DNA of 64,000 bases, taken from the IMG/VR virus record IMGVR_UViG_3300044633_000631, positions 1 to 64,000 of that record. One strand, written 5' to 3'. This document shows positions 14,306 through 62,620 of the stretch, one piece after another; the stretch's first letter is position 1, and each line of letters begins with the position of its first letter. The notes below the pieces were generated by a model that was not told the DNA's origin, ran no database searches, and saw only the letters and a program-made list of their open reading frames with translations. The translations under genes and the position numbers were made by a program. This stretch comes from a virus.

Positions 14306-14787
14306 TAATTAGCCCTCCACCATGTTCTCTTACCACTATTCCGGAGTAATGGTTTGATGAGTGTCTTTGCAACCATGGGGATTTTATCCGCAGGTCTAAT
14401 CACACTAAGTTTAATGCCACTAAGTTCTAAATCTTTAATTAAGCCTGTATTGTCTAAGAGTCCGTCATTATTTAATAAATGATAAGCTAACTCATAAGTA
14501 GCTTTAATGACTCTTTGATCAACAACAGTAGAAACTAAAGAAACAAGTATACCAAGCTTAGGATCAAAATATTCACCATCTTTACGGGGATGAGCAAGTG
14601 ACTGAGCTGAATCTGTAGCTACTCCGATCCAATCCAATTCATCCAACATAAAAGTAGCAGTGCATAGGGCTTGTTCTTTCTGAAGAGCAGGAGCATCAGT
14701 CCATGCCGCTACATCTAGTCTGTTCTCAAAATAAGTACTGGCCTCAGTTACGGTAGCATTTGAATTAACACCTTTAACTAGTGCCAT
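14305..14787 (-). CDS. Head-tail adaptor (family often annotated DnaT-like)
   Basis: NSNATVTEASTYF...KEQALCTAT...QSLAHPR...VIKATYELA; directly after the capsid gene. Confidence 0.7.
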   Translation of the reverse strand: MALVKGVNSNATVTEASTYFENRLDVAAWTDAPALQKEQALCTATFMLDELDWIGVATDSAQSLAHPRKDGEYFDPKLGILVSLVSTVVDQRVIKATYELAYHLLNNDGLLDNTGLIKDLELSGIKLSVIRPADKIPMVAKTLIKPLLRNSGKRTWWRAN

Positions 14788-14797
14788 AACCTACTCC

Positions 14798-16039
14798 TTA
14801 AGAATGGAATACAGGTAAGATACCTAATGATAATGCAGAAGCTGTTTTACGTGTCCATGTACCACGTGCGTTAGCAATAGTACCAGTTGCAGTCAATGCT
14901 TTAGAAGTACCGCTTTCAACAACACCCATGTAATTTGCATCAGATGGGAATTCAGTTTTAGCACCATTCCAATCGTAACCAGCAGGAGATAATACATAAC
15001 CCCAACGATTCCAAATAGAAGTTGTACCACCACCTTTGTATTTGTTAGCGTCACGGTAAACTTCAACTGAATCAGGAACCGTCAACTGTTCCATTGCAAT
15101 CGCACCTGGCAATACAATGAATGAAGTTTTCTTATTAGCAGCAAAAGTAGTTGCAGCACCAACGCCAGCACCAGTACGTAACATTGTTAATTCAGCAGCA
15201 GAAAGCGACTGAGCAGCACGTGTAGTGATTAGACGGAATTTACCATTGAAGATTGTGTTAAAGTTAATGTTACCATCAACAATAGTTGTTTCATCGACAA
15301 AGTTAGCTGAACGAAATGAAGCCATAGTTTCAGGAGATACAATTAAGTACGCCCATTCTGGTTCATAATCTTTAAATGCCATACCAAATGCATTTAAGAA
15401 ACCTTCAGCACGTGAAGCACCTTGATATGCATAGTTAGTAACCGCACCAGGAGCCACACCATTAGCAGTAACGATTTTCTCAGAACCAAGATCTACGTAG
15501 AAACCATATTTCTTATCTGTAGGATCGTTAGAGAATGTTTGACCGCCAAGACCGGTTGAACCTGAACCTGTAGCAGCACCGTTTAATGCTTCAGCTACAG
15601 CAACACCTTTCAATACAGAAAGAATAGCATTGTGTTCGTCTTGAGCGCGGGTTTCACCGAAGTCACGACCAATTTTAGCTAAGCCGTCTTGTTGTGTAAC
15701 AATTTGTTGCATGTTAACTTTTTCGGCACCGTGTGTACGCACAGTTTTAATATATGTGCTGTAGTCAGTGTCGTAATTGGTTTTGACGCCGTCTGCAGAT
15801 TCAGTTAATGACGCAACGTTAATAGTTGGGTTTAACGGTTTCATCCAACGCATTTGACCAATAAAGGTTTCTGTGCTAGTATCAATTTGTGGATTAGAAG
15901 AAGTAATACCTGTGCCAGATAATTTTCTTGCATTGGTATAAGCTTCATCGCTGTAAGCACCAATTGCTTCTTGTAATACATAGTTATTTGTTAAGCCAGC
16001 CTGCATACCTGTAGGCAAGGTACTTGTTGTAACGCCCAT
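14798..16039 (-). CDS. Major capsid protein
   Basis: 413 aa following the scaffold gene. Codon usage typical of highly expressed genes, a strong RBS, and coat-like VEVYRD...GGGTTSIWNRWGY near the C-terminus. Confidence 0.8.
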   Translation of the reverse strand: MGVTTSTLPTGMQAGLTNNYVLQEAIGAYSDEAYTNARKLSGTGITSSNPQIDTSTETFIGQMRWMKPLNPTINVASLTESADGVKTNYDTDYSTYIKTVRTHGAEKVNMQQIVTQQDGLAKIGRDFGETRAQDEHNAILSVLKGVAVAEALNGAATGSGSTGLGGQTFSNDPTDKKYGFYVDLGSEKIVTANGVAPGAVTNYAYQGASRAEGFLNAFGMAFKDYEPEWAYLIVSPETMASFRSANFVDETTIVDGNINFNTIFNGKFRLITTRAAQSLSAAELTMLRTGAGVGAATTFAANKKTSFIVLPGAIAMEQLTVPDSVEVYRDANKYKGGGTTSIWNRWGYVLSPAGYDWNGAKTEFPSDANYMGVVESGTSKALTATGTIANARGTWTRKTASALSLGILPVFHS

Positions 16040-16059
16040 TTTAATTTTCCTTAAAGTAT

Positions 16060-16698
16060 TTATTTCCTGCGAAGTGATCCTTCAGCAGCACGTTTAAGCA
16101 CTTCATCTTGTGATAACTGGAATAAAGATTTATTCGAAGTATCTTGAGAAGTACTGCTAGAACTTGTCTGACCGGCCCCTGTCGAAACTTTTGGTTTGAA
16201 TAAGAAAGAATTGTTATCGTCTTCAGAAAATTGTTTTATAAAGGTTCTTAGATCAGTTCCTGATTTATGCACCCATACTCCATTTTCATTTTGTACAAGT
16301 TGCGATGCCACATCCATATATGCCATATCCGCAGCTTTATCACTTCTAAACGTATATCCACTAAGAACAGATTTTACTTCTAAATCCCTAGCGAGTTCTA
16401 TGTTACGTTTTGTTATCGTTTCCAATTTAGCATTGGCTTCCGCTAACTGAAGTTCATAAACTTCTTTATGTTTTCCTTCTTCTTGAAGTCTTTTTATTTC
16501 AGCTTCTTTCTCTTTTTGTTCATACTCAGCAGCTTTCTTTAACGCATTGTCTCTTTCGCTGTACGCTTTATCGAGTTTTTCTTTGATTGGTTTAAGAGCT
16601 TCTTGGATCTTCGTGTCCATATCATCCACAGGAGAATTGGTAGCAGTAGTATCCGGAGTAATATTATCAGTTTCTTTTTCTTCGACATTTTCGGTCAT
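16060..16698 (-). CDS. Capsid scaffolding protein
   Basis: Probable start MTENVEEK with an AAGGA RBS. Charged coiled coil with an FLFKPK..TGAG tail; precedes the capsid gene. Confidence 0.8.
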   Translation of the reverse strand: MTENVEEKETDNITPDTTATNSPVDDMDTKIQEALKPIKEKLDKAYSERDNALKKAAEYEQKEKEAEIKRLQEEGKHKEVYELQLAEANAKLETITKRNIELARDLEVKSVLSGYTFRSDKAADMAYMDVASQLVQNENGVWVHKSGTDLRTFIKQFSEDDNNSFLFKPKVSTGAGQTSSSSTSQDTSNKSLFQLSQDEVLKRAAEGSLRRK

Positions 16699-16711
16699 TT
16701 TATGTTTCCTT

Positions 16712-16749
16712 TGAGTACAACTCAGTGTTATAAAGTGAATACAATTCAC
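16712..16749 (-). promoter_or_regulatory. Two tandem mini-hairpins with identical loops next to the scaffold RBS
   Basis: Plus strand TGAGT-ACA-ACTCA (16712-16724) and GTGAAT-ACA-ATTCAC (16735-16749). Confidence 0.5.
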
Positions 16750-16775
16750 CCTATAGGATATTTGTTTTTAGTATT

Positions 16776-16795
16776 TAGGGTTAATTTAACGGGTT
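16776..16795 (-). promoter_or_regulatory. Putative phage RNAP promoter (copy 1, one mismatch)
   Basis: Plus strand TAGGGTTAATTTAACGGGTT; upstream of scaffold/capsid. Confidence 0.75.
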
Positions 16796-16889
16796 CTATA
16801 ATCCCTTAAGATAATTATCTATTAGTATATTTCTAAGGGATAGATAATAGACTGATTAACTAAAGGGATTAAATAAAGGGGGACCGCTT

Positions 16890-16909
16890 TAGGGTTAATT
16901 TAACGGGGT
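16890..16909 (-). promoter_or_regulatory. Putative phage RNAP promoter (copy 2)
   Basis: Exact TAGGGTTAATTTAACGGGGT, intergenic. Confidence 0.8.
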
Positions 16910-16932
16910 CTCTGTAAAGAACCTGTGCATTA

Positions 16933-17067
16933 TCATTTGTGTTTTGCTCCACATACAGTGCATGTGAACCCTTTCTTCTGATCTGGATTCATCACTCTCA
17001 TTCCATTGCCATGAAGTTTATCCTGATTAGGATGCTGACATGTACATCTTTTAATTTCTGCGTTCAT
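16933..17067 (-). CDS. Small Cys/His-rich putative zinc-binding protein (44 aa; not in ORF track)
   Basis: MNAEIKRCTCQHPNQDKLHGNGMRVMNPDQKKGFTCTVCGAKHK; starts 3 nt after the MuF-RNAP stop. Confidence 0.65.
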   Translation of the reverse strand: MNAEIKRCTCQHPNQDKLHGNGMRVMNPDQKKGFTCTVCGAKHK

Positions 17068-17070
17068 ATT

Positions 17071-20000
17071 TTAGCCTATACCGTAAAATCCCCAATCATC
17101 CTCAAATTTAGTAGGATCAGGAATATCGCTCATTACATCTTTCTTTGTTAAGATGTCTGCTTCTGTTAATGTTTTACCACCGACAACTGATTTACCAGCA
17201 ACTGGAATTAATCCTTTATCAATAGCTTCTTCTAAATATTGATCATATAATTCTTTTGGAAAACCTCTAGCTAACATTTCATCTAAAGTAACCTTGACAG
17301 GGTTCTTATCTAGTACGTTAGCATATAGCTTTCTTATACCCTTCCGGGCCTCCAGCATATCGGCTGCATTGGCGAAAAACGCATCGTGAATGGTGCTTGT
17401 GGCAATCTTATTGTCTCGTCCCCATAAATGGAAATTCTTGACCAACGTAGCATCGTTTGAGTGATTCCCGTTAACGGCATATGCTGTTCGTGCTTTAGTC
17501 GCGTCTGCAATGTCATTTATCTTTCCTTCAGCATTTACTACTTGTTCCCACCAAGTGGCTTCTGTTTTCTGTTGCACTTGAACTAAATTATTAACCCAAT
17601 TACCATCTTTATCTTTATAGACTAATCTTTCTTCAAATGACTGGGTAAAGTTTTGCTCAATAACTTTTCCATCAAAATTAACCCATGGGACATTAGTCCA
17701 AGACTTGGGCAGCTTATTAGCATAAAATATTTCAAAACCTTTAGAGATATTTAATTTTTCTATAGGCTCTACTTTAAATACTTTAAATCCAGTTCTACGA
17801 TCTTTTGGGCCTTTTACACCATAAATAAGATCAGCCAAGGTTCCGTCAGGTTTCCAACCATCAAATCTCTTTAAAAACTTTTCAGACAAAGCTTCTCCAG
17901 GCCTTAATCCTAATATTTCACTAACTCTATCAGGTAATACATAACCCTTTTTACGGGTACCTAATATACTAGTAGCGCCTATAGATTTCCAATCTAATGC
18001 AGCTTGTGAAGGCTTAGCATTAGTTAAATAATCTTCAGCTAGCCTACCAAAGAATTTAGTAAAATCTTTAAGAATAGGAACCTGCTCACCTAAATGTTCA
18101 GACATTAATTTAGCAATAGCTTGGAAGTCTTTTGGAGTGACAACCATATCATATGAACGTGTCATCTTTTCTACTAGGTCTTTAGTAGCTGGATCAAGGA
18201 AGTATAATTGTTCCATTATCTCATCACCAGGGTCTAGTCCTTTATTAAAGATGTCTTTTACATTTTCTCTTAATTGCTTAAGTTCTGCAGTTGTTTCAGG
18301 ATCAAACTTTTCATATCTTGCTGCACGTGCCGATATTTCATTTAATACTTTGTCTCTATCACTAGCTCTAACTACTAATGTAGGTGCAAATGTTTCAGGC
18401 TTTTTAGTTACATTAATCAATTCTTCTTGTAATGCTGAACTAAGATCTGCTATAGTCTTTTCTGTGTTTGCAGTAGCAGGTGTAAATCCTGCATCTTCTA
18501 AAGCCATTTCAGCAGCTTGTTTATTTGTCTTTAAATTATAAACACTCGCTTCATCTTTAATGATAGTGTCTTCACCAAACCTGTTTGACTTTAAAATACG
18601 TTTTTGAGCTTCTAATAATTTAAAGGCTCTTGAATCGGAAGGGACATTTAAAGATTTTAAATGCTCATCTAAAAATTCACCGAGTTCTTCAACAACTTGC
18701 ATAGCAATATATTTCTTAGTATCGCCTTTTGAGCGCTGTTCAAATTTAGCTTTATTTTCAGCTATCTTTTCTTTAGAAAATTTTTCACCAGTCTTATGAT
18801 CAAATGTTTTATATGTAGCACGCTCTTTTCTTTCATCTGTTAATTCAATATCAGAAGTATGTAGCCATTTAAACGTATTTTTTAATTCTGCAGGAGACAA
18901 CTGACCTTTCATAGCCTTTGAAATTAACTCACCTTGCGATTTAATAATCTCATCTACTGTGCCTACATAATTAGGATCTGTTTTATTATCAACACCTAAT
19001 ACTCTTAACAATCCTGCAGAATCTTGACGCTCGGATAATAAACCTTCTGTTACTTTTGTTTCAACAGGTTTTGCAGGTTTCTTTTCCAATACTTTTGCAA
19101 GTTTACCTTCAACATTAAGAATTCCAGTTCTTTCTCCAGCACCATAAAACGTAACCATATTTTGAGCTTTTGCAGCTTTACGTAAATCTTTCTCATTTAA
19201 ACCTAATCTCTCATTTAAAACTTTAAACCGAGGATCATTAAAAGTTGCAGCAGCAATTTCATCATATAGCCTGCGTTTCTGATTTGTAGGTATGACATTA
19301 GATAACGAGGCTAACTGTTTGTTCTTCGTAGTTAACGCAATAATCTGAGCACCTGATGATGAAGCATCTTGTTCTAAAGCTAAAGCTGTTTTGTATGCAT
19401 TCATAGAGCCGCCGGCTTTAAGATGATTATCTATCTTAGCAGCTTCCATAGCAAATCTCATGAACTTACCAAGTTCCTCACCTTCAATTAATTGCACCAT
19501 ATCTGATTCCAGAATGGCACGTAAATCTGCAGGTCTGGCTCTTAGCATTTTATTACCAAGGTCTACCATATCTGGCCACAATTTATCAGCAATCTTTTGG
19601 CGTCCAGTAAATGACAATGAATTATATCTACCTTCAAATACATCATTTAGACCCCCCATAAAGGCACCTATCTGATCTCTGAAGTTTCTATATCCATCTT
19701 CGCCAAGAACCTTTTCTACTTCAGTATTTAAGAAAGGTCTAAATGACTCTCCCGATTGCGGACTAATAAGGCCACGATCATAGATCCTAGCCCGATGATC
19801 GACAAAAGCATGATTACTGAAAGCGTAACCATTATTTCTAAGCCAATCCATAGATTTAAATCGCTCATATGCATCACCACGAGAAGAAATATAATGTTTA
19901 TACTCGTTTAAATCATTATACTTTTTAGCATTACCACGATCATCTTCAAAGTATAGTAATTTCTGAGTAAAGTCGTAAAAGTCATTATCAATTTTATACT

Positions 20001-22398
20001 TGGATTTGGATGCCCAGTTAAGTGCATCTGCCATATTCTTGTCAACAAATTCTACAGGAAAATCTGAAAAACTATTTGTTGATGTAATAGGTATTCTAGT
20101 ATCTTCTAAACCGAGGACACCATTATCAATAAAATACGTTTTATAACCCTCGCGAAATAATAACTTATTCTTATCCGTTGTTACACCGACACGAAGGCCG
20201 ACATCCACTTTCCGTGTGAGCTGTGAGTATTTTTGTACACGCGGATCAGTAACACGTATATTATATGATAAGGTGTCATAATAGGGACCAAATAAAGAAC
20301 CACTAAGTCTACTTTTCATTCTTCTTTTTTGAACACCATATGTTTCAACTTCAAAGAAATTATTAACATTTTTAGCTTCAAGTAGCTTCATACCTGTTTC
20401 ATACCATTTACGTCTAGTGCCGTTCATATTAGCAAGATTATATAAATCTCTTCCTAATGCAATAGCAAACTGGTCTCTATCAGGCATATCTGCCATACTT
20501 AGCCTGTGAGCAAACTTTAGATAAAATTGCTGTAATGCAGATTCAGTTAAACGTTCTTTACCGTTAGGCATTCTTTTTAATACTAAAGGAATTTTGTAAT
20601 CAAATGTATTACGTAACTCTCTAGCTATTTTAGGTGATATAGTGTCTTCCCAGTTATTCTTAGCACGAATATTATCAATGAAATTATCATGTAAGTCTTG
20701 TAATTGAGTTGGACCTAATACTGGATCAATATAATTATCTTGTTTGAGTTTCTTCAATACGTTGATATCACTACGTATCTGAGTTTCAATAGCATCAGAA
20801 ACATTCATTACATCAAATTTAATTTGACCTTGTACTACAGCTTTAAAATTATTCCACTGTTCACCATTATTTCTAAATCTAGTAAATAATATACGCAGGT
20901 TATCTACCACGACTGCCCTTTCATTAGATCCCATTTTCTCACTAAGTAATTCATTAAATTCCTTAATAAATTCCTTATCTTTAGGCTTTAGAACATTACT
21001 TTGTTCTGTCAATCTTAAGTTATTATTTAGTACGGACGGATTGGGTTGGTATAGTCTTGTATCTTCGTATCGACCTGTGACAGGATTAAAAATGAGTTGA
21101 TCTTCTGTTGGAAGACTATTAAGTACTCTTGCCTTGGCAGATTTCTTAGTATGAATAAGACCACCCCTATAATTAGTGAGTGATAATGTACCGTCTAATT
21201 CACCTGATTGCAGTAAATAATAATCTTTAAGTGTTTGTATAAGCTTAGTGTTGCCAATTAAATCATCAGGTGTCATGATTGGAAGTTGCATAGCATCAAG
21301 TTTAGCTTTAGCATTAGCAAACTTTTTTGTATCATTTGGCAGTGTATATGTGGGATCGGTCATCCGTCTTAATTCTTTAATCCCAATAGAATTACCTTCG
21401 GGATTAGTAAACTGATCTAAGGTAAGCTGCCCGCTTTGGAACATACTAACTTTTTTATAATCACCTAAATGCCTTAATTGTACATCTTGTGGCTGACGCT
21501 TTAGCCAATCATTGTATGATTCTCTAAGTGGTGTATTACCGTCATAAAAAGCCTTTTGAGCATCAGTTAAGTTCTCAATATTTCTACGTCTTACTTGTGC
21601 TACGCTTTCTAAATCTGCTATATCGCTCCATGATTTAAATACAGGAACTGTTGTAGATCTACAATGCCAATGTGCTGGTGGGAGATGTGTTGTATCGCTA
21701 ATCGGATAAATTTCACCATCTCTATGGGCACATACTGGGGTTGTTCGTGCGTCAAGGACAGCAACATATTGCCATCCTTGTAACGCTTTTTCATTTGCTT
21801 TATAAATAGCATGATCAGCCTGAGAGGATACAGCTGTAATGGCTGTTATTACCAGACCTTTCGACTGCATGCGAGTTATATTATGTACATTTCCTGCACG
21901 TACTTGTAGAGCTATTTCATCTACGCTTTTTCCGTCAGCTATACCCTTACGTATAACTGCTTCTAATCTAATTTTTTCATTCTTGGCAATACCTGACCAT
22001 CCCTGTTCCATTGTACCATTTTCGCTTAATGGATTTTTAAGTACAATTTCTTCAGAGATTCTATTTTTAGGTCTTTCAGTACGCCATATTTTACCCATTG
22101 CCACTTCAACTTTTTGATAAGCATATGAGAGTTGATCTGAGACAAGTGATGAAAGATCTTTTTGAACAGAATTATTAATTGACTTATAAGTCTTTCTTAA
22201 CTCTTGATCAACTGCTTCTCTGAATCTTTCAAAACCCCTGCCTGATAGTTCAGCATCTTTAATTAATTTATCTAGTCTAACAACATGACCATCAATTACT
22301 AAATCAACTTTACCAGAGACTCTTCTCTCATACAGACGGATCATTGCTGCGCGATCTAGTGTTTTGTCGTATATTTGTGTATTACTATTAATGGTCAT
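17071..22398 (-). CDS. MuF (SPP1 gp7-like) minor head protein fused to a T7-family single-subunit RNA polymerase; putative virion RNAP
   Basis: N-terminal MuF motif WQYVAVLDARTTPVCAHRDG...PPAHWHCRSTTVP (about aa 210-252). C-terminal RNAP motifs DHRARIY...PQ, motif A EQDASSSGAQ (D1011), motif B RKAAKAQNMVTFYG (K1077, Y1085) and NGNHSNDA...IHDAF (D1672). Directly downstream of portal. Confidence 0.9.
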   Translation of the reverse strand: MTINSNTQIYDKTLDRAAMIRLYERRVSGKVDLVIDGHVVRLDKLIKDAELSGRGFERFREAVDQELRKTYKSINNSVQKDLSSLVSDQLSYAYQKVEVAMGKIWRTERPKNRISEEIVLKNPLSENGTMEQGWSGIAKNEKIRLEAVIRKGIADGKSVDEIALQVRAGNVHNITRMQSKGLVITAITAVSSQADHAIYKANEKALQGWQYVAVLDARTTPVCAHRDGEIYPISDTTHLPPAHWHCRSTTVPVFKSWSDIADLESVAQVRRRNIENLTDAQKAFYDGNTPLRESYNDWLKRQPQDVQLRHLGDYKKVSMFQSGQLTLDQFTNPEGNSIGIKELRRMTDPTYTLPNDTKKFANAKAKLDAMQLPIMTPDDLIGNTKLIQTLKDYYLLQSGELDGTLSLTNYRGGLIHTKKSAKARVLNSLPTEDQLIFNPVTGRYEDTRLYQPNPSVLNNNLRLTEQSNVLKPKDKEFIKEFNELLSEKMGSNERAVVVDNLRILFTRFRNNGEQWNNFKAVVQGQIKFDVMNVSDAIETQIRSDINVLKKLKQDNYIDPVLGPTQLQDLHDNFIDNIRAKNNWEDTISPKIARELRNTFDYKIPLVLKRMPNGKERLTESALQQFYLKFAHRLSMADMPDRDQFAIALGRDLYNLANMNGTRRKWYETGMKLLEAKNVNNFFEVETYGVQKRRMKSRLSGSLFGPYYDTLSYNIRVTDPRVQKYSQLTRKVDVGLRVGVTTDKNKLLFREGYKTYFIDNGVLGLEDTRIPITSTNSFSDFPVEFVDKNMADALNWASKSKYKIDNDFYDFTQKLLYFEDDRGNAKKYNDLNEYKHYISSRGDAYERFKSMDWLRNNGYAFSNHAFVDHRARIYDRGLISPQSGESFRPFLNTEVEKVLGEDGYRNFRDQIGAFMGGLNDVFEGRYNSLSFTGRQKIADKLWPDMVDLGNKMLRARPADLRAILESDMVQLIEGEELGKFMRFAMEAAKIDNHLKAGGSMNAYKTALALEQDASSSGAQIIALTTKNKQLASLSNVIPTNQKRRLYDEIAAATFNDPRFKVLNERLGLNEKDLRKAAKAQNMVTFYGAGERTGILNVEGKLAKVLEKKPAKPVETKVTEGLLSERQDSAGLLRVLGVDNKTDPNYVGTVDEIIKSQGELISKAMKGQLSPAELKNTFKWLHTSDIELTDERKERATYKTFDHKTGEKFSKEKIAENKAKFEQRSKGDTKKYIAMQVVEELGEFLDEHLKSLNVPSDSRAFKLLEAQKRILKSNRFGEDTIIKDEASVYNLKTNKQAAEMALEDAGFTPATANTEKTIADLSSALQEELINVTKKPETFAPTLVVRASDRDKVLNEISARAARYEKFDPETTAELKQLRENVKDIFNKGLDPGDEIMEQLYFLDPATKDLVEKMTRSYDMVVTPKDFQAIAKLMSEHLGEQVPILKDFTKFFGRLAEDYLTNAKPSQAALDWKSIGATSILGTRKKGYVLPDRVSEILGLRPGEALSEKFLKRFDGWKPDGTLADLIYGVKGPKDRRTGFKVFKVEPIEKLNISKGFEIFYANKLPKSWTNVPWVNFDGKVIEQNFTQSFEERLVYKDKDGNWVNNLVQVQQKTEATWWEQVVNAEGKINDIADATKARTAYAVNGNHSNDATLVKNFHLWGRDNKIATSTIHDAFFANAADMLEARKGIRKLYANVLDKNPVKVTLDEMLARGFPKELYDQYLEEAIDKGLIPVAGKSVVGGKTLTEADILTKKDVMSDIPDPTKFEDDWGFYGIG

Positions 22399-22417
22399 TT
22401 GGTATTCCTAGATTAAA

Positions 22418-24016
22418 TTATTCCTTCATAGGTTTTGGTTTACTACCTGCAGCAGCCGCTTCTGACTGCATAGCATATTGATCATTATATTTTGTTGCAG
22501 CAGGAATGATTAATTCATCAGCGTTTACTTCTTGTAATGCGGCTTCATCATCATATTCAGAATCAAGAATATCATTTGCTTTTAACATCTGTAACCACAC
22601 GCTTCTTGGTAATAAACCTGATTGATACCATTGAGTAACAAGATTCAACCAATCAGCACCTAAAGGCACTGGATCAAAATCTGCGGATAAATTAAACACA
22701 ATATCACATGAATCAATTTGCAGGCCATATCTCCAGTTAACCATTAAGCCTATTACTTGCTTTAATGTACTAGAGATTTTTGTACTCAACACACTTAATT
22801 GTGCCGTTTGAGCAGCATTACGAATTTCTAATGCAATACCTGATTGTTCATTTTCAGTTGTAAGCATTCTAATGCCAAGTTTAGCCATTTCATCAATAGA
22901 TGCTTCAATAGCTTTTTGCATATCTTGTAATGCGTCTGTGGGTGTTTTTAAGACATCTGCTTTATCATCTTGGCGTAATCTTATCCAAGACCCTAATCCA
23001 GCGTCTACAATTTCATCAAATTGTTCATCAGGCATATCTGACATAATAACAGGTGTATAAGTAGCTGCACCGTATAGTAAATGATTTCGTCTACTAATTT
23101 TATTATATAGGCTAATCTCTTTATCTACGATAGGCATTAATAATGGCATAATAGGTTCTATATTACCATTAACAGGCCATGCAGGAATATGCTTTAGCGG
23201 TTCCCCGTTATTAAGTATATTGTCAAATGTTTCTATTAATTCAAAATGGCCTGAAGGTAGTAATTGCTGCGCTTTCTCACCAATACCCCCTATTTTAAGA
23301 GTTTGATCACCATTATCTTTAGTTGTGCCCATGAACTTGCGGATTTGGTAATTACCTTGTTCGTTTAACTCATGCACCCATACCGTAGGGACTCTCAGAG
23401 CATGGAATTCATTAGTAGTATAATCTTCTGAGTAACCTTTAACAATTACATATTTTAAAACTGTTTTACCAAATACATCTACAGTTGTTGCCCAATTAAC
23501 AATTGTTTCAGCTTTTTGCAAAATAGGATATGGTTTAATCATATCTCTAGTTTCTTTATCTAAGTTCTCAACATCATTAACGGATGGGTGGTCTACAAAT
23601 ACCCATGCACGGGATGTATTGATCTCTTCCCACAATAGTTCATCAAGAAATGCCACTAGTGTAGAGTCATCACGTCCGATATTGTTGATAAGCCAATCTT
23701 TAGCTTCTTCAGGAACTTCATCTGGTAATGTCAATATAGGAGCTTTTCTTAATAAACCCCCAACAAGCATCTTAGCAAATTGTGCAGTAATGCCTGGTAA
23801 TTCAGCTTCTGACTTATAAAAGTCATATTGAGCTTGGCTCATTGTTGTAGAGAAGGGTATCAGCAAATTGCTAAATCTAATTAGATCAATATACTGATCC
23901 AACTCTTTTACAGTACGTTCCCCATTGCATACAGCACGTGCCTTATTCCACGAAGGTTTAAGATACTCATACGCTTGACAAGGATCCGCAACTGTCTTAG
24001 TAGGGCCGTATGTCAT
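22418..24016 (-). CDS. Portal protein (DUF4055-like)
   Basis: 532 aa. QAQYDFYKSEA..P...LVGGLLRKAP N-terminus, SRAWVFVD, and EQSGIALEIR; precedes the MuF gene. Confidence 0.85.
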   Translation of the reverse strand: MTYGPTKTVADPCQAYEYLKPSWNKARAVCNGERTVKELDQYIDLIRFSNLLIPFSTTMSQAQYDFYKSEAELPGITAQFAKMLVGGLLRKAPILTLPDEVPEEAKDWLINNIGRDDSTLVAFLDELLWEEINTSRAWVFVDHPSVNDVENLDKETRDMIKPYPILQKAETIVNWATTVDVFGKTVLKYVIVKGYSEDYTTNEFHALRVPTVWVHELNEQGNYQIRKFMGTTKDNGDQTLKIGGIGEKAQQLLPSGHFELIETFDNILNNGEPLKHIPAWPVNGNIEPIMPLLMPIVDKEISLYNKISRRNHLLYGAATYTPVIMSDMPDEQFDEIVDAGLGSWIRLRQDDKADVLKTPTDALQDMQKAIEASIDEMAKLGIRMLTTENEQSGIALEIRNAAQTAQLSVLSTKISSTLKQVIGLMVNWRYGLQIDSCDIVFNLSADFDPVPLGADWLNLVTQWYQSGLLPRSVWLQMLKANDILDSEYDDEAALQEVNADELIIPAATKYNDQYAMQSEAAAAGSKPKPMKE

Positions 24017-24017
24017 A

Positions 24018-24218
24018 CTAAGCCTCTAATAGTCTATTAAATTCAACAATAGTGCCTTCAAAATATTCATTTGTCACGCTATTCAAAGCTGTGATTTCCT
24101 CTTCAACTTCAGTAGGTGTAATATTCCAGTTAGATGTAATTTTATTTACAAATTCTTTTGGTTGTACCTTTGCCATAACTTTAGGGGCTACGGTTAATGT
24201 TTCTTGCTGATCTGCCAT
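24018..24218 (-). CDS. Hypothetical protein
   Basis: 66-aa ORF packed between endolysin and portal, with an RBS. Confidence 0.65.
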   Translation of the reverse strand: MADQQETLTVAPKVMAKVQPKEFVNKITSNWNITPTEVEEEITALNSVTNEYFEGTIVEFNRLLEA

Positions 24219-24219
24219 T

Positions 24220-24669
24220 TTATTTTCCTAAAAATTTAGTTGATTCACGTTTACGTCTATTGGTTAAGCCTGGAACGACTTTACCTTCATCTTTATTCCA
24301 TCTAAGGAATTGAGCAGCTACTTGATCTTTAGGTGCCCCTGCATTGAGTCGCTTCAATAATGTAGAACCTTTAAAAGCGGCTACACCTACATTATATGTA
24401 AATTCTACTAATGCATCAAATTCGTTTTGTGTTAACGGTACAGTTACGTTTTTATCAACTGCACTTGTGTATTGCTTAAGGGTAACTTTGAAAAGTTGTA
24501 ACGCTCGCTCCTTAGTAATGGGAGCATCCTTTAATGTGACTCTAGTACCATTCTCATAGAAAGTACTACCAAAGCCAATAGTAGGGACGCCCTCACCATC
24601 TGGATACGGTTGCGATCTAAACCCTTCAGAACCTTTTAAGTCTTCTGCGCCTTTATCGCTAAGTTCCAT
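24220..24669 (-). CDS. Endolysin, GH24 phage lysozyme
   Basis: SEGFRSQPYPDGEGVPTIGFG (E-x8-D-x5-T), LTQNEFDALVEFTYNVG, STLLKRLN, GLTNRRKRE. Confidence 0.95.
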   Translation of the reverse strand: MELSDKGAEDLKGSEGFRSQPYPDGEGVPTIGFGSTFYENGTRVTLKDAPITKERALQLFKVTLKQYTSAVDKNVTVPLTQNEFDALVEFTYNVGVAAFKGSTLLKRLNAGAPKDQVAAQFLRWNKDEGKVVPGLTNRRKRESTKFLGK

Positions 24670-24671
24670 AA

Positions 24672-24830
24672 TTATACCGCTGCAACAATAACGCCAATAG
24701 CAACTTCTTTTGCTACTTCTTGTACATCAGGATTAGTCACAACTTTTTCTGCAACATCTGCTGCTTCGTGTACAGTGTGATTAATAGCTTTTCCTGCATC
24801 TTTAAATGCTTTATCTAAACTGTTTGTCAT
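24672..24830 (-). CDS. Small hypothetical protein (52 aa; not in ORF track)
   Basis: MTNSLDKAFKDAGKAINHTVHEAADVAEKVVTNPDVQEVAKEVAIGVIVAAV. ATGA overlap with the upstream stop and a GAGG RBS. Confidence 0.65.
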   Translation of the reverse strand: MTNSLDKAFKDAGKAINHTVHEAADVAEKVVTNPDVQEVAKEVAIGVIVAAV

Positions 24831-25618
24831 GATACAACCTCTACAATTGTGTCAACAGTTACGTCGACAACATCTTCTACAATGCTGTGAGGTACAATAG
24901 GAACTAGTACTTCAACAACCTCTTCTACTGAATCTTTTAAATCATCTAAAAATGACATACCAATCTCCGGAAATAATCCTGTATTAATAAAATTAACTAC
25001 TAGTTCTTTCTCAAAGCCTAACGATTCTAAAACTCTTGGCGTATGAGGATTTTGTTTTTGCATCTTACAGTAAAAATTTTGTTGATCTATATATAAATCT
25101 TCGCTAGAAGAATAATTTACATTTGTTAAATAACACGAAAGTGAATCGTGTGCTAGCTTTAAAAATGCATCTAATTCGGTTATAGTGTTTATATTACTCG
25201 CAGCTACCATATCTTTACTGAATATAGCGCGTGCCCATTCAGGCAACTCGCGCTCTCTCTTCCAGCTATACTTCTTCGTCTCTGAAGCAAACCAACTAGT
25301 TAATGGATGACTATCTTCAGACACAGGAGAGTAATCAAGAAATGCGCCCGTTACCTTATTAGGGCCAGCCACAATATCTACACCAAAGATAGGAGAATTA
25401 GAGGTGATTTTTGGGAATATACAGAGATGCATCATATAGATTTTCTTAGTGTCCCGAAGGTCAATAATATCTAAATGAGCTCTACGTATATAATGGTTAC
25501 TATACACTCTATTTTCCCAACCGAAATCATGCTCTTCATTCGTATCTTCAGCATAGTTATCTAGTAACACTTTGAATTGTTCAGCCTGAACTGTTAATCT
25601 TTCAAAGATTTCACTCAT
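24827..25618 (-). CDS. pcyX: Ferredoxin-dependent bilin reductase, PcyX/PcyA-like
   Basis: RRAHLD...MMHLCIFP...PIFGVDIVAGPNKVTGAFLDYSP...RELPEWA.AIFS...QKQNPHT; adjacent to heme oxygenase. Confidence 0.85.
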   Translation of the reverse strand: MSEIFERLTVQAEQFKVLLDNYAEDTNEEHDFGWENRVYSNHYIRRAHLDIIDLRDTKKIYMMHLCIFPKITSNSPIFGVDIVAGPNKVTGAFLDYSPVSEDSHPLTSWFASETKKYSWKRERELPEWARAIFSKDMVAASNINTITELDAFLKLAHDSLSCYLTNVNYSSSEDLYIDQQNFYCKMQKQNPHTPRVLESLGFEKELVVNFINTGLFPEIGMSFLDDLKDSVEEVVEVLVPIVPHSIVEDVVDVTVDTIVEVVS

Positions 25619-25657
25619 ACAGTGTGCTGTGCAAGGTCATATAAATAATCTATTAAC

Positions 25658-28849: not shown

Positions 28850-31800
28850 TTAAAATAAATATGTACGTGGAATGTCGAGAATGCTTACTGTTGATGTTGT
28901 GCCTACAGTAACAGTAACCCAATCAGGGATACTATATTGCTGTTTGGCAGACAAGAAACTGCCTGTTAAAGTTGTACTTGCAGAAGGACTCTTGACCAAT
29001 GTTTGTAAAACGGTGCCTGTGGTGATATCCACTAAGATTACAGCTCCTTCGATTGCAACTGTGCTACTAATTACCGTACCTGTTGTTATATATTTAACTT
29101 CATCTTCGCCAACTACATTATCAGTGTCGGTAATAAGAGAGGTTAACGGATATATAGTTGTCGCATCGATAGCGGCTACTGTAGAAGCATTTCGAGAATC
29201 AACATAAGCTTTAACAGCGTGTTCTGTTGGAACGGCTACATTAGAATCACCGGATAAGGTCGCATCACTAGAAAACTCATTAATAGTTTCACCAAGCTGT
29301 GCTCCAATGGAACCGAGCTTTAATGATGTTAACCCTGCTAGATCGAAAGCATTAGCATTAAGTGTAGCACGACCAGTAGCCTGATCAATCCTGAAATATT
29401 CACCTACTCTAAAGTTACCATCTTGATCGGTACTTACATAGAAAACACGCCCTGGATAAGCTTCTTCGGTTTCATTACCTTGAGCTGCCGGCTGTGTTGG
29501 GAGACCTGGATAATTAGTTGTTGTTACACCGCCAGTACCAATACTTAAAAAGTCATGTCCTGTCAAACGAATCTGACTATATTTTGTTCTTACAGTCGCA
29601 ACAGTCCCGCTAGGCGATCCTGTAGGTTTTTCCTGTGATAAAATTAATACTAATGTACTAGTATTATTAATATATGTGCCAGAAACACTTTGAATAACGT
29701 ATGCATAAGTATCACCCACTAAGGAAATACTCGAGCCAGGCTTAGGCGCTGCGGTCAGATTCGTAACTACTAACACAAAACCTTTCTGATTCTCTAAAGC
29801 TCCAGCTGATACAGTACCTGTACCACCACTTGTAAATGTAAGTGCATCGCCTAATGTAAATGTGCCTGTGGCATTTTTCACATAAAGTTTATTGGCGGAA
29901 TACTGAACATTAGTCACAGTAGCGCTACCGTTGGGGCCTGTTACTATATCGTTTTCGTTTATCGAGCCATTGCCATATAGGAAGTTTATTTGTTGACCAA
30001 CTAAAGCACCTGTAATCGGCGTTTCAGACGTATCATACCCTCTTGAGACTGCACCCCAAGTACCATAGCTGTTATTGCCATTTAATGCACGAATGAAACC
30101 ACCGCCCGTAGCTGAATAACCAAAGTAGCAATAATATGTGAAACAAGATACAATCTCAGCTTTACCACCATCTTTTACCCAGTAGCCTACACCATTATCT
30201 GAGATAACAGTATAGCCATGGAAGATCATAGTTCTAGCACCAGCGGCATGAATACTACCGTCAATTAATGCCCCAATAGCTCCACTACAAATCGCAGCAC
30301 ATTCCAAAACATAAGGCGATTTGGTCATAACAGGCGATGCTGGGTTAAATCTTACAACTACACCTTTTATTGTGGATGTTGTGATATCTTCCGCAGTCGT
30401 ACCTGTAACCCACCCTGTCATACCTTTGAAGGTCATTTTATTAAGGATAGACCCATTGCCCATCAAGAACATTGAAGAATTGGCGTTGCTTGTTATACCA
30501 TCTGTTGATAACCCAGCTTTAGCTTGAATGGTAACAGTACGCTGACTATCGCCTACAATCGCTGTATGATCTGGAACAATAATAGGTAATTGTTCATCAT
30601 AGGTACCAGTCTTAACGAAAATAGTTGCGTTAGTACCACACTGTTCTGTAGCATACTTTAAAGTAGCAAATGGTGTAGCTAAATTTCTACCTGAATCTAA
30701 TGTATCGACACCGTGCGGTGCTACATAGAATATTTTATTAGATTCTGTTGCACCAGTCCAGTCAATTAGATTGCCTGAAACACCTACCGTTAACGAACGC
30801 CCTGTATCACCATTTACAATAGGCGGAAGGACATCCGAACCGCCGACAACAAATTGTGACCATTTAGCGGAGTCTTGAACAAATGTCGGCGCTGAAGTGT
30901 GAGTTGCAGTTGCAATGTAAGCAGAACCTACAGCATCTTTAACAATATCGTCAGGTAAATATAAAGTACTTGTTGCCCATGCTCCACGCCATCTAATACC
31001 ACTATTATACTTACGCCAAGCACCTGCCGCTAAATCTGTGGCAAATACTGTAGATGCATGTGGTAATAGTGTAATATAAGTATTACCACCATAAGTAACA
31101 ACTTCATCTATGCCGTAAGCCGTAGCAGTTGTCCAGTCCCCCTTGTTAGAAATACCGCCTACAATTCTAGTCCAAGATGTTGTGACTGTAGGATTAACAT
31201 TAGTACTATCGATTACTGCTTGGAATAAAGAACCGCCATAAGTAATTGTTTGTCCAATCTTATATGCTGTTGCGGGTGACCATACACCTAAGTAAGAAAA
31301 GCCTGCGAGATAAATATCCCAATAGCTTGTTTCTGTAGGTAGATGACCTGTTGTATCTACTTTAGCTTTATAAATATTTGCACCATATGCTACCAAATCG
31401 TTAGGCACATACACTGTTGAATTATTATAAATAGCCTTTACAGAAACACCTTCAACAAATTTATCCCAGAAAGCTGTTGCTGTGGGTAAATTGTTAGTTG
31501 AATCTTGTTTAGCAATATAAGTAGAACCACCATATACAACTACATCATTCTTTTGATAAATGCCTGATGAAGAATATGTGCCTTCATACTGAATACCATC
31601 TGCAAATTGAGACCAATAAGCTGAGTTAGGAGGTGTTACATTAACGGTATCGACAATACATACATATACTTTACCCCCATGTGCTACACCATCACCAATA
31701 CGATAATTAGTTGAAGTGCTGAATACACCTTTAAATTTAAAACCCTCTACCATTAACGCCCAATGTGAGGTAGCGGTAGGTAATACACCTGCGGTTTTTA

Positions 31801-38023: not shown

Positions 38024-38110
38024 AGTTTACTCACATTTCAGTTTGCATTCAATGAGTTACGTCTCCGTAGCCCTCTATTTTAAAAATTAACAATTATTTA
38101 TTATTAATCT

Positions 38111-38130
38111 TAGGGTTAATTTAACGGGGT
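38111..38130 (-). promoter_or_regulatory. Putative phage RNAP promoter (copy 3)
   Basis: Exact TAGGGTTAATTTAACGGGGT. Confidence 0.8.
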
Positions 38131-38265
38131 TTTCTATATGTCTCAGCGCTTTGCCCTTTAGGAAAAAGCCAGGGATCCCCTAAGGGATATATTTATTAGA
38201 TTAATTATTATTGATTAATAACTAAGGATTAACAACTAATGGATTATAATTCAGGGGAGCGGCTT

Positions 38266-38285
38266 TAGGGTTAATTTAACGGGGT
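38266..38285 (-). promoter_or_regulatory. Putative phage RNAP promoter (copy 4)
   Basis: Exact TAGGGTTAATTTAACGGGGT. Confidence 0.8.
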
Positions 38286-43418: not shown

Positions 43419-43540
43419 GATGAATTCCTTAAGATAAATTATTAATTAATATTTATCTGTGCGGTCCCACTTAGTGCGCTTTTGCCCAATGCTCTTACAG
43501 TTCTTAATACGAGATGAGAATCTAACTTCTTATTTGAAAT

Positions 43541-43560
43541 TAGGGTTAATTTAACGGGGT
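43541..43560 (-). promoter_or_regulatory. Putative phage RNAP promoter (copy 5)
   Basis: Exact TAGGGTTAATTTAACGGGGT. Confidence 0.8.
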
Positions 43561-43606
43561 TGGCACACTCGCATTACAACCCGAACCCGTTAAGGTACTG
43601 CTTTTG

Positions 43607-56965: not shown

Positions 56966-56992
56966 TGCTGTTCTCTCTTTTGATTTCTGAAT

Positions 56993-57012
56993 TAGGGTTA
57001 ATTTAACGGGGT
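56993..57012 (-). promoter_or_regulatory. Putative phage RNAP promoter (copy 6)
   Basis: Exact TAGGGTTAATTTAACGGGGT, 27 nt upstream of the SSB start. Confidence 0.8.
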
Positions 57013-60103: not shown

Positions 60104-62323
60104 CTATGCGAAAGCGTATTCGCTTTCTAGAATTAAATTAATATCAAGATCACCCATCTCAAGATAAGTAAGATCTCCGTCAATATCATCCATTATTGGA
60201 AACAATGGATTATCTTTATAAAGTTCTACAAATGTCTCGCGAACTATTCTAAAGAGATTTGGCATGTCAGCAAATAAACAACCATAGCTGTCATGAATTG
60301 TTGTAATTGTAAAATCACAACGGTGTGTAGTAAGTGCTAAGTGTGCTGCATCTAAACTATGAATAACGTTAGGTGCTGCTCCTTGAGACTGCTTACCTTT
60401 ACTAGGAACCACATCTTCAATAAAACATATTGCTAATTGAAAAGTGTTTTCATAATAACCTGTAGATTTACGTGACCCAACTGGTGGCCCATACTGTACA
60501 TAAATCTTTTTAACTTTACCTTCTGTATAATTTTGTACCACAGGAAAGTTTACTATTGGAACATTCCATGATAAAAATTCTTCAATTTTCTCACAGTTTC
60601 TTCCGGCATTCTCAAATATATTTAACAGCCTCATTGGCTTCTCTAATGAAGCTTTACAATCTTCAAATACTAATCTGCCCAGCCAAGCTCCCCATTTATG
60701 CTCCATATGAAGTAGCAAGTCTATTCCATGCTTTTTTGCATCAAGGATTTGTTGCTCTCCCAATCCATAGCTGCTACCTCCATAAGGAAGAGTCATAGTG
60801 TTTCTTTTAACTATCTTCCTTCTTTGTTTCAAATCCTTTATACGATTCCAAAATACAGGTGCTGCAACAGAGCCAATATCAGCCCATTGTTGTTTATAGG
60901 CTTTAATTTGAGCTACTAGTTGATTCCTAATTTCAGACTTAGGTTCGGATGCAGTAATCTTTTTCTTTAATTTAATTAAGCCATCTATAAAATCTTCACA
61001 TTGAAAGATTAAATCCGCTGGCATTCTTGCTATGTCATTAGATATTTTATTCCATACATGTTCGGCAACATATGCATATAAATCACCTGGAAGTTCTAAT
61101 GGAATTAAATTAACATATGGAGCTGTTATTTCATCTCTTGTTAATGCAGATAAATGTTGTGAGCCGTTCGTTGATCCGTCAATAAAACATTCAACATGTG
61201 ACTCATACTCTAAATATCTTGGTCCCAATTTTAAAGCATTTCTTAATTCAATACATGCACTTAAGAATTGCCATGGCTTATCTCCTGACATCCATCCTTG
61301 ATTTACTTTTGGACTTTCTGCATATGATAATAAAATCTCTTGATTGTCTAATACCCACTGATATCGGTCTTTGAGATTGATCTTATCCGTCTTTGCACCA
61401 TCTTCACGTCCTGATGAACCTGCCCAGTTACTGGCGATAGATACACATAGCCAAAAGAAACCCTCTTCACCAATTACTTTCTTATCTTGACGCATTAAAA
61501 GACCTTTAGCAATATCACTAGATTGTTCATGGAGATATGCCGTTGTTGGATATTTCCTTCCACGGAAATCAAGGTAATACATATGGTAAAATACAGTATC
61601 CATGAACTTATCTGCTATAGATAGAATAGCTTTTGTTTCCCTTAATTTAGTAGTCTTAGCTTGAGGATTTTGCTGCTCCCATATATCACTAAATGCATCA
61701 GTATGGTTATTCAATGCCCATTTAGAAACATTATAAACTTCTTTGTTTATTTGCCAACCCGTATTTAAGCTCTTATTTACTGAATCAAATACTATAGGAT
61801 GTGTTGCAGGTGTTAATTTTGTTGGAACATCTTTATTACCCGTCTTGACTAATACTTGTCCAGTAGGGTGTTTGAATTCTGTATAAGATTCATATGGTGT
61901 TACTGAAGGTAATTTACCCTTGGCACCTTCTCTGCTTACACTTTCCCATAGTAATTGTATTGTCGCATCATCTAAGACTTCTACAATATATGTTGCATGA
62001 CCATTACCAGCAGAACCTAGTACTGCTCTAAGCATTCCAAGCTCTTCAAATGAGTATAGTATGAATGCACCAGTCTTAGCCGCAACAGATGAATCTTTCT
62101 TTAAACCTCGTCTTACTGAATGCCCAATAATGCTAATGACTTCTACCATTAATATTTGTTTGTTTACAGCACCTCTCTTTGGACGAGTGTATAAGTATAC
62201 GTTAGATATTATTACATCTAATACGCTTTCTAAGTCAATTTCTTTTAGAAATTTTAGCGGACTTTGAGGAGCTATTTCTAATTGCATCCTTCTTTTTAAT
62301 GACTTCAATAGTTGTATTCTCAT
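60104..62323 (-). CDS. T7-family single-subunit DNA-directed RNA polymerase (stand-alone, 739 aa)
   Basis: DFRGRKYP, KPWQFL, motif A IDGSTNGSQH, motif B RKIVKRNTMTLPYG, APNVIHSLDAAHL, motif C IHDSY. Confidence 0.97.
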   Translation of the reverse strand: MRIQLLKSLKRRMQLEIAPQSPLKFLKEIDLESVLDVIISNVYLYTRPKRGAVNKQILMVEVISIIGHSVRRGLKKDSSVAAKTGAFILYSFEELGMLRAVLGSAGNGHATYIVEVLDDATIQLLWESVSREGAKGKLPSVTPYESYTEFKHPTGQVLVKTGNKDVPTKLTPATHPIVFDSVNKSLNTGWQINKEVYNVSKWALNNHTDAFSDIWEQQNPQAKTTKLRETKAILSIADKFMDTVFYHMYYLDFRGRKYPTTAYLHEQSSDIAKGLLMRQDKKVIGEEGFFWLCVSIASNWAGSSGREDGAKTDKINLKDRYQWVLDNQEILLSYAESPKVNQGWMSGDKPWQFLSACIELRNALKLGPRYLEYESHVECFIDGSTNGSQHLSALTRDEITAPYVNLIPLELPGDLYAYVAEHVWNKISNDIARMPADLIFQCEDFIDGLIKLKKKITASEPKSEIRNQLVAQIKAYKQQWADIGSVAAPVFWNRIKDLKQRRKIVKRNTMTLPYGGSSYGLGEQQILDAKKHGIDLLLHMEHKWGAWLGRLVFEDCKASLEKPMRLLNIFENAGRNCEKIEEFLSWNVPIVNFPVVQNYTEGKVKKIYVQYGPPVGSRKSTGYYENTFQLAICFIEDVVPSKGKQSQGAAPNVIHSLDAAHLALTTHRCDFTITTIHDSYGCLFADMPNLFRIVRETFVELYKDNPLFPIMDDIDGDLTYLEMGDLDINLILESEYAFA

Positions 62324-62502: not shown

Positions 62503-62583
62503 AGAAAGAAAAAAATAAGGGTTAACCCTCCCACATCCCTAATACACCCCCAATTAAGGGAATGTATTAGGGATGTGGGAGGG
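62503..62583 (-). terminator. Long perfect inverted repeat with a T tract, upstream of the RNAP gene
   Basis: 21-bp perfect arms at 62526-62546 and 62563-62583, then TTATTTTTTTCTTT on the minus strand. Confidence 0.7.
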
Positions 62584-62620
62584 GATATTCTTACTTACAG
62601 AGTCAACAGACTCTGACTTT

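Follow-up and report, generated by a model that had tools for sequence, protein, structure and literature searches.

A predicted T7-type RNA polymerase fused to the MuF minor head protein of a siphovirus-like phage is a candidate for delivery with the virion

The stretch of DNA analysed here, positions 1 to 64,000 of the IMG/VR virus record IMGVR_UViG_3300044633_000631 (hereafter the window), carries at 17071..22398 on its minus strand (-) a single open reading frame (ORF) that joins a MuF-type minor head protein to a T7-type single-subunit RNA polymerase (RNAP). The ORF, whose coordinates include the stop codon, starts with ATG, has no stop inside the frame and encodes 1775 amino acids (aa). 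Its first part is a MuF/SPP1 gp7-like head morphogenesis module (aa 1-350; 21349..22398 (-)), over which PHROG 241 ('head morphogenesis') spans aa 1-349 with E 5e-62 and the Pfam family Phage_Mu_F (PF04233) matches a core at aa 146-250 (21649-21963 (-)) with 53.3 bits against a cut-off of 29.6. It is followed by a middle region (aa 351-575; 20674..21348 (-)) that is conserved in the alignments, mostly helical in the model and of no recognized family, and then by the polymerase module, modelled as aa 576-1775 (17074..20673 (-)). In that module the Pfam family RNA_pol (PF00940) matched two stretches with 39 bits against a cut-off of 22, and phrog_414 ('RNA polymerase') spans aa 864-1096. A Pfam scan of the whole protein gave no domain besides PF04233 and PF00940, and a search of the whole protein against PDB sequences gave no match at E <= 1. 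An earlier note on this DNA, made from the letters alone, had read a MuF/SPP1-gp7 domain at about aa 130-255 and had proposed a check with these two Pfam families; both score above their cut-offs, and the MuF motifs LDARTTPVC and PPAHWHCRS lie at aa 215-223 and 240-248.

The ORF occupies the slot between portal and scaffold that had been read for it, as one uninterrupted frame. The portal protein gene (22418..24016 (-); phrog_145, E 2.8e-56) lies directly upstream across a 19-nt gap, with an endolysin gene on the same side, and the scaffolding protein gene (16060..16749 (-); phrog_206) and the major head protein gene (14798..16039 (-); phrog_247) lie on the other side. A six-frame search of the genome with PF04233 gave a single MuF match, the fusion itself (58.3 bits), so the fusion presumably fills the structural MuF job. 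An N-terminal MuF domain and a C-terminal enzymatic domain thus occur in one polypeptide within the head module, which is the layout of MuF-anchored cargo proteins. The middle region was modelled with a predicted local distance difference test (pLDDT) score of about 80-95, and its ratio of nonsynonymous to synonymous substitution rates (dN/dS) is 0.05-0.09. A model of aa 1-650 (pLDDT 84) had no Foldseek match at E <= 0.001, and a wide VIA search with it returned only generic helical bundles (Z <= 9.3), which are uninformative as to the fold of MuF and of the middle region. A complex prediction of the portal protein with MuF aa 1-360 scored 0.00, which weighs neither way.

The catalytic motifs of T7 RNAP that had been recognized by the earlier reading are all present at the residues given for them, namely DHRARIY at aa 867-873, D1011, R1073, K1077, Y1085-G1086, HSND at aa 1646-1649 and IHD with D1672. 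In an alignment of 30 relatives of 18-96% identity, D1011 and D1649 are invariant and K1077, Y1085, G1086, H1646, D1672 and R871 are at least 90% conserved. When the profile of these relatives was aligned with T7 RNAP by hhalign, T7 residues 397-841 were covered with a probability of 99.3% and E 1.6e-20, and D1011, K1077 and Y1085 were paired with T7 D537, K631 and Y639. The same profile aligned with a second RNAP of the phage (RNAP2, described below) from RNAP2 residue 78 with a probability of 98.2%, which places the start of the polymerase module no later than about aa 660; judging from the model, the module probably starts near aa 540-580.

The AlphaFold2 model of aa 576-1775 (mean pLDDT 82.4, predicted template modelling score 0.77) matched T7 RNAP (8dh5_B) at E 8e-14 in Foldseek. 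VIA-align gave Z scores of 30.4 to 1s76_D (628 residues aligned), 29.9 to 8dh1_E (root-mean-square deviation 3.4 over 525 residues) and 30.6 to yeast mitochondrial RNAP, the T7 and mitochondrial matches lying at about Z 30 over 500-650 residues, whereas the N4 mini-vRNAP (3c46_A) reached only Z 21.9. The modelled fold is the right hand, with thumb, palm and fingers, of the solved T7-type RNAPs, and the structure check suggested by the earlier note therefore came out in favour of an RNAP. The specificity-loop region of T7 RNAP falls inside the profile alignment, and the model has a beta-hairpin there (aa 1587-1609); for the N-terminal domain, structural alignment begins only at about T7 residue 167. 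The identity to T7 RNAP in the structural alignment is about 16-18%, and the two catalytic aspartates are separated by about 390 extra residues relative to the T7 enzyme. The label 'T7-type' thus holds for the fold and the active site and needs qualifying otherwise, as the fused module is a deep, separate branch that was found in fused form alone and has large insertions separating motif B from motif C.

One alternative is that the RNAP part is a catalytically dead relic whose only use in the capsid is to add bulk or to act as a DNA-binding plug; the low PF00940 score and the large insertions that break the fingers would fit this. Against it, the catalytic aspartate pair, the motif B lysine and tyrosine and the HxxD motif show little or no variation down to 18% identity, and the fold is complete. 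Furthermore, pairwise comparison of the fusion gene with five close relatives gave dN/dS values of 0.05-0.12 over the MuF, middle and RNAP segments (0.05-0.09 in both RNAP halves and 0.12 in the insertion described next), indicating that every segment of the gene is under purifying selection. A dead relic is considered very unlikely; the polymerase active site is intact and the module apparently active.

A lineage-specific in-frame insertion of 234 aa (aa 1107-1340; 18379..19080 (-)) lies in the fingers directly after motif B. It is missing from 28 of the 29 aligned relatives; L012, L013 and L045 lack it despite 93-96% identity. L011 carries it, as does G019 at 59% identity. The inserted segment is charged and helical, was modelled with low pLDDT and is crossed by independent metagenome contigs without mismatch. 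Segments of it are 38-45% identical in three other large proteins (P0194, P0195 and P0197; lengths given as 3,748, 1,660 and 1,183 aa), in which Pfam recognized nothing except a GGDEF domain elsewhere in the 1,660-aa P0195, and a search of aa 1100-1345 against the ESM Atlas gave a best score of 0.80, which is chance level. The insertion may be a mobile protein module. An intein was considered and rejected, as the segment has no intein-like termini, is missing at 93-96% identity and shows the purifying selection of normal coding DNA. Some contigs end loosely near 18240 and 19146-19157, which suggests that strains with different sequence around the insertion occur together.

A survey for the same architecture, as the earlier note had proposed, showed that the fusion is widespread in lake and marine phages. 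A word-indexed search returned at least 434 proteins matching the RNAP part; among the matches listed, nearly all are about 1,540 aa long and carry PF04233 and PF00940, and contigs with fusion homologues reach 108 kb. In sampled relatives, MuF was recognized in 29 of 30 and RNA_pol in 26 of 30 (best RNA_pol E 5.6e-38). An exhaustive phmmer search of 1.84 billion representatives gave only 153 matches. In every match of at least 1,000 aa the RNAP part stands behind at least 580 N-terminal residues; most shorter matches, which were not individually inspected, resemble fragments, and a few RNAPs of 520-610 aa align at motifs A-B only. IMG/VR holds at least 571 related stretches, and in 54 of 80 loci examined the fusion gene directly follows the portal gene. 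Three isolate genome records (DSS3_VP1 twice, and DSS3_PM1) carry the fusion. In these Ruegeria phages (Naomviridae), which have siphovirus morphology and DNA containing deoxyuridine (dU-DNA), a 1,463-aa 'minor head protein-like protein' occupies the same slot; in DSS3_VP1 (MN602266; L004) the MuF-RNAP gene lies at 21242-25633, and an open frame of 735 aa at 43324-44556 encodes a second RNAP. A fusion homologue of 56-60% identity is present in EBPR siphovirus 1. A megablast search with 12 kb of the locus against GenBank phages gave no match.

These results make it exceedingly improbable that the ORF is an assembly or gene-calling artefact joining two genes, a suspicion for which only its unusual length and the closure of the contig inside a tandem repeat of another gene can be adduced. 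The same fusion occurs in hundreds of independent assemblies and in the three isolate records, and lake metagenome runs of 2020 and 2024, neither of which is flagged as a possible source of the record, tile the ORF in Logan contigs, insertion included, with zero mismatches.

Mobile introns often interrupt the fusion gene in relatives. In L042/G002 it is cut into pieces of 1092, 345 and 133 aa by two group I introns (Rfam, 75.6 and 72 bits), both with an HNH endonuclease ORF behind them, and the first cut lies immediately in front of the motif B sequence TFYGAG. Intron/HNH interruptions were located at 7251-7489 and 9105-9368 of L042 and at 9359-10039 of L006; an HNH gene stands at the same motif B site in EBPR siphovirus 1, and G005, G006 and G016 are likewise split. 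No intron was found in the window's own fusion gene. Homing introns typically insert at the most conserved sites of important phage genes.

The phage encodes a second polymerase. RNAP2, a canonical T7-like RNAP of 739 aa, is encoded in the early region at 60104..62323 (-) and was recognized by PF00940 with 218-221 bits and by phrog_414 with E 3e-112. A long G+C-rich hairpin with a T-run behind it (62503..62620 (-)) separates the small early ORFs from the RNAP2 gene and, as read from the sequence, looks like a strong terminator or attenuator. Both polymerases are also present in DSS3_VP1 and in the near-complete relatives G002 and G003. G001 has no second RNAP; its linear contig ends about where the RNAP2 gene should start, and the absence is therefore uninformative.

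Two classes of promoter-like motif were found, and their positions relative to the RNAP2 gene differ. The first class, P1 (CCCGTTAAATTAACCCTAA), occurs in six perfect copies, all of them intergenic, on the coding strand, downstream of the RNAP2 gene and before middle or late genes. The first copy downstream of RNAP2 (56992..57010 (-)) stands ahead of the replication genes, one lies at 43540..43558 (-), two (38265..38283 and 38110..38128, both (-)) mark the start of the terminase/structural block, and a pair follows the fusion gene, one copy just downstream of it and upstream of scaffold and capsid (16889..16907 (-)) and the other before the scaffold gene (16775..16793 (-)). P1 includes AATTAACCCT, a 10-mer with which four annotated promoters of the T3 genome begin (0.02 expected by chance). 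The class begins downstream of the RNAP2 gene, as T7 and T3 promoters do for their own RNAP gene. Relatives retain P1 or a P1-family core, which is CGTTAAAGA in DSS3_VP1 and G003. A related second motif, CCCC..ATT.A.CC.TTAGT, stands 6-7 nt behind the P1-type motif at three sites (16882, 38257 and G000 64673). Between the fusion gene and the P1 pair lies a 44-aa ORF (16933-17067 (-)) with two cysteine pairs (CTC...CTVC) and the look of a small zinc ribbon.

The second class, E, is AT-rich, has the consensus tGCGgAAAaaNNgGTATCTTATATGAa and is restricted to the early region, on the stretch from the tail genes to the RNAP2 gene. Two perfect copies, of the form CGGAAA-N4-GGTATCTTATATGA, lie just outside the window at G000 64598-64621 and 64060-64083 (-), each 35-50 nt before a small ORF, and a weak third copy lies at about 63659-63672 (-) of the window. 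The motif is kept in G002 (G+C 34%) and in G001 (G+C 48%). An exact scan of IMG/VR for GSAAANNNNRGTATCTTATATG gave at least 118 stretches, compared with 6 for the reversed pattern, and flanking positions beyond the search pattern are conserved as well. In the 32 loci examined that have both E and an RNAP2 homologue (38-94% identity), all 44 E copies are on the same strand as the RNAP2 homologue and 0.9-5.1 kb upstream of it (median 1.65 kb). The fusion is encoded, at 60-83% identity, in thirteen of the 16 near-complete genomes that carry E; the remaining three have neither RNAP nor MuF, in line with chance background. By eye, E shows no sigma-70 -35/-10 arrangement, no Bacteroidota TTTG/TAnnTTTG pattern and no evident inverted repeat. 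Set beside the known consensus sequences of T7, SP6 and T3 promoters, it resembles them in being a long contiguous block ending TATATGA(A/T), unlike a bipartite sigma promoter, and is a candidate promoter of the fused polymerase.

The record is 78,740 bp long and has a 58-bp terminal overlap, which points to circularity of the assembly (78,682 bp), and the independent runs in which this DNA occurs come from lake water metagenomics. All annotated genes and nearly all called ORFs are on the minus strand. Further upstream of the fusion on the same strand lie genes for the large terminase, DNA polymerase, primase/helicase, ribonucleotide reductase and ligase. The gene for the tape measure protein (TMP), of 5,362 aa, wraps around the contig ends, from window positions 1-11605 on to G000 74199-78682 (-). 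The closure of the contig falls inside a 105-bp (35-aa) tandem repeat of this gene, and the repeat number and exact TMP length are consequently uncertain. The TMP contains a TMP_3 domain (aa 132-320) and an SLT transglycosylase domain (aa 3052-3148); no RNAP domain was found in its first 3,868 aa, where the scan returned only these two. A TMP of this size implies a siphovirus-like phage with probably a very long tail, for which the TMP length suggests about 0.8 micrometre (~800 nm). The siphovirus-like assignment made earlier agrees with this TMP and with the morphology of the cultured relatives. Between terminase and portal lie genes for a 1,025-aa tail fibre-like protein (28850-31927 (-); phrog_9851, E 1e-211) and a ferredoxin oxidoreductase-like auxiliary protein (24827-25618 (-); phrog_7278); the interval is an unusual place for a tail fibre gene.

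The E motifs lie upstream of the RNAP2 gene, and whichever polymerase reads them has to be there before RNAP2 is made. Given that RNAP2 has its own plausible P1 class and that the other RNAP is made late in the only MuF protein, a relay between the two polymerases is the simplest reading. The fusion protein would be made late, together with the head proteins, a few copies would be brought into the procapsid at the portal by the MuF module, and the protein would leave the capsid with the DNA or just ahead of it. In the new cell, the fused RNAP would transcribe the first-entering genes, the RNAP2 gene among them, from class E promoters, and RNAP2 would then transcribe the middle and late genes from the T3-like P1 promoters. 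We infer capsid incorporation, ejection, polymerase activity and the pairing of each enzyme with its motif class. Two RNAPs and two motif classes in the expected positions fit, by analogy, a relay from virion to non-virion RNAP as in N4 and P23-45. The MuF-RNAP would accordingly be made late, packaged and ejected and would start transcription from E, including that of the RNAP2 gene, with RNAP2 then reading P1; we think this probable and hold it with moderate confidence. The same moderate confidence applies jointly to this delivery and relay and to the statement that the N-terminal module replaces the ordinary minor head protein, the C-terminal two thirds being an apparently active T7-type RNAP. 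The delivery proposal of the earlier note is thus well founded as to the fusion, the fold, the active site, the sole MuF and the late slot, and is strengthened by a second, canonical RNAP with an early motif class upstream of its gene, while its core claims, on entry into capsids through MuF, ejection together with the DNA and early transcription or transcription-driven DNA entry, are put forward as a proposal.

Several observations weigh against this relay. PF00940 covers the polymerase module only in parts, and the insertions between motifs B and C could change its function. A P1-like variant stands at the start of the early region (G000 64680-64698), and E could be read by the host polymerase or by RNAP2, the assignment to the fused RNAP resting on position and on resemblance to promoters of single-subunit RNAPs. 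No E motif was found in DSS3_VP1 or G003, which carry the fusion and in which only the P1-family motif was found, and early signals there, if any, must differ. A search among near-complete relatives for lineages that have one polymerase and lack the other, made to separate the promoter assignments, found none. A protein of about 200 kDa would need to pass through a very long tail. Virion proteomics is absent from the DSS3_VP1 paper, and RNAP goes unmentioned there.

Another explanation dispenses with delivery and has the RNAP work late in the producing cell, either tethered to procapsids or portals, in late transcription or concatemer processing coupled to packaging, or cleaved from MuF as a late RNAP. 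The gene lies in the late head operon and packaging is putative, both of which suit such a role, as do lake-water metatranscriptome contigs that cover the gene. Freshwater contigs of RNA runs X17/X18 cover the head module at 14500-24500, including the fusion gene; the RNA word depth is about 15-60 over the fusion gene and about 200-550 over scaffold and capsid (about tenfold), with a step at the P1 pair, whereas the DNA runs are flat. The step is a weak hint at most, as genes cannot be ranked by contig depth and RNA libraries may contain contaminating DNA. However, RNAP2 and the P1 motifs ahead of the late genes already supply a late polymerase, no dedicated polymerase would remain for the E motif of the early region, and nothing would be gained by an obligate fusion to the sole MuF, yet every match of at least 1,000 aa has the long N-terminal part. 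In PHROG scans of 20 of the larger ORFs, the fusion and the TMP, including most head-module genes, no prohead protease was found. A role confined to the producing cell is regarded as unlikely.

It is also conceivable that the fusion is delivered and that its job is mainly mechanical, transcription at the portal or channel pulling the genome into the cell and early mRNA being secondary. T7 RNAP pulls in most of the T7 genome. Here the polymerase is joined to the one head protein that is known to be at the portal and to bind DNA (SPP1 gp7; cited in PMC5512222), and all genes are on one strand, so that one direction of transcription could draw in the whole genome. For P23-45, the authors propose that transcription is concomitant with DNA translocation (PMC10770324). 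This explanation makes the same sequence predictions as delivery for early transcription, and the circular assembly hides the genome ends. The E motifs found all lie within about 1 kb of where the early region starts, however, and the strong terminator-like hairpin before RNAP2 speaks against uninterrupted pulling. A mainly mechanical function therefore seems rather improbable.

Returning to delivery for early transcription, the phage may have a third, independent route to host-independent early transcription, a proposal that we make tentatively and with less confidence than the relay itself. A T7-type RNAP tethered at the portal, beside the DNA end that leaves first, would use its own double-stranded AT-rich promoters (GGTATCTTATATGA) and start infection through a second RNAP gene; it may couple transcription to DNA entry down the ~800-nm tail, and the dU-DNA of DSS3_VP1 may be a further reason for a private polymerase. 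PBS2 and AR9 are a precedent for dU-DNA with a private transcription apparatus. The two features are linked in those phages, and both dU-DNA and two RNAPs occur in DSS3_VP1.

To our knowledge, only a small number of phage groups have virion-delivered RNAPs (N4-like, crAss-like, phiKZ/AR9-like and P23-45), each of which has taught something new about transcription and genome delivery. If the proposal is true, MuF proteins can carry a phage's own transcription machinery, beyond toxins, and independence from host RNAP is widespread among long-tailed phages of lakes and oceans. There may then be a new compact promoter/polymerase pair, apart from those of T7, T3, SP6 and N4, with a use in orthogonal expression; hundreds of 'head morphogenesis proteins' would be re-annotated, and Naomviridae would offer a cultured model. 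Neither the fusion of a virion RNAP to a structural protein nor the carrying of cargo by MuF is new in itself. No description of a MuF-RNAP fusion was found in the literature searched, in which most subscription journals are missing, and this agrees with the earlier note, which named no characterized example. Two papers on DSS3_VP1 leave the MuF-RNAP and the second RNAP unremarked, and an RNA polymerase goes unmentioned in the Naomviridae paper.

The T7 enzyme is a free protein of 883 aa, made early from host-transcribed mRNA and not packaged. The present phage resembles T7 and T3 in the fold and catalytic motifs of its polymerases, the placement of genes on one strand, the early RNAP gene and the long contiguous promoter motifs, P1 sharing AATTAACCCT with T3 promoters; it differs in that the fused module is encoded in the head operon.

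Comparison with N4 gives a similar mixture. As in N4, a single-subunit right-hand RNAP encoded among late or virion genes would have an early role, and a second T7-like RNAP would serve the next class; N4 gp50, however, is a protein of about 3,500 aa from a podovirus, without a link to MuF and with its own N-terminal injection region and a C-terminal encapsidation region that includes a zincin metallopeptidase (PMC5512222). The present fusion, with 1775 aa, a MuF carrier and no further Pfam domain, does not have the N4-like gp50 layout, and its modelled polymerase is nearer to T7 and mitochondrial RNAPs than to the N4 mini-vRNAP; the phage also has a giant TMP. N4 early promoters are DNA hairpins, and no inverted repeat is evident in the E motif.

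A further comparison is with the Thermus phage P23-45. It is a long-tailed siphovirus with a TMP of 5,002 aa, compared with 5,362 aa here, and has a virion RNAP fused to a structural protein (gp96), a second RNAP (gp64) and two promoter classes, the AT-rich one at pre-early genes; the virion RNAP transcribes pre-early genes, that of the second RNAP among them, from this AT-rich class of its own, and the AT-rich pre-early motif is present only in those relatives that have the fusion (PMC10770324). The P23-45 polymerases are two-barrel, cellular-type enzymes and the carrier is the TMP, whereas here both RNAPs are T7-type, the carrier is MuF and the scanned part of the TMP has no RNAP domain. The P23-45 relay has been shown experimentally (PMC10770324), whereas the relay proposed here is inferred.

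The fusion can finally be set beside the MuF cargo proteins, comprising MuF polymorphic toxins, polyvalent proteins, SPP1 gp7 and Mu gpF. MuF proteins belong to the head and bear effectors at their C-termini, and the virion RNAP of N4 is injected; in the 2017 survey of MuF and polyvalent proteins, virion RNAP modules appear only in N4-like proteins and no MuF-RNAP fusion is described (PMC5512222). The phage studied here shares with these proteins an N-terminal MuF domain encoded next to the portal and a C-terminal enzyme that is presumed to be delivered. The known cargos are toxins and host-modifying or anti-restriction enzymes (PMC5512222), whereas the cargo of this MuF protein would be the phage's own RNA polymerase.

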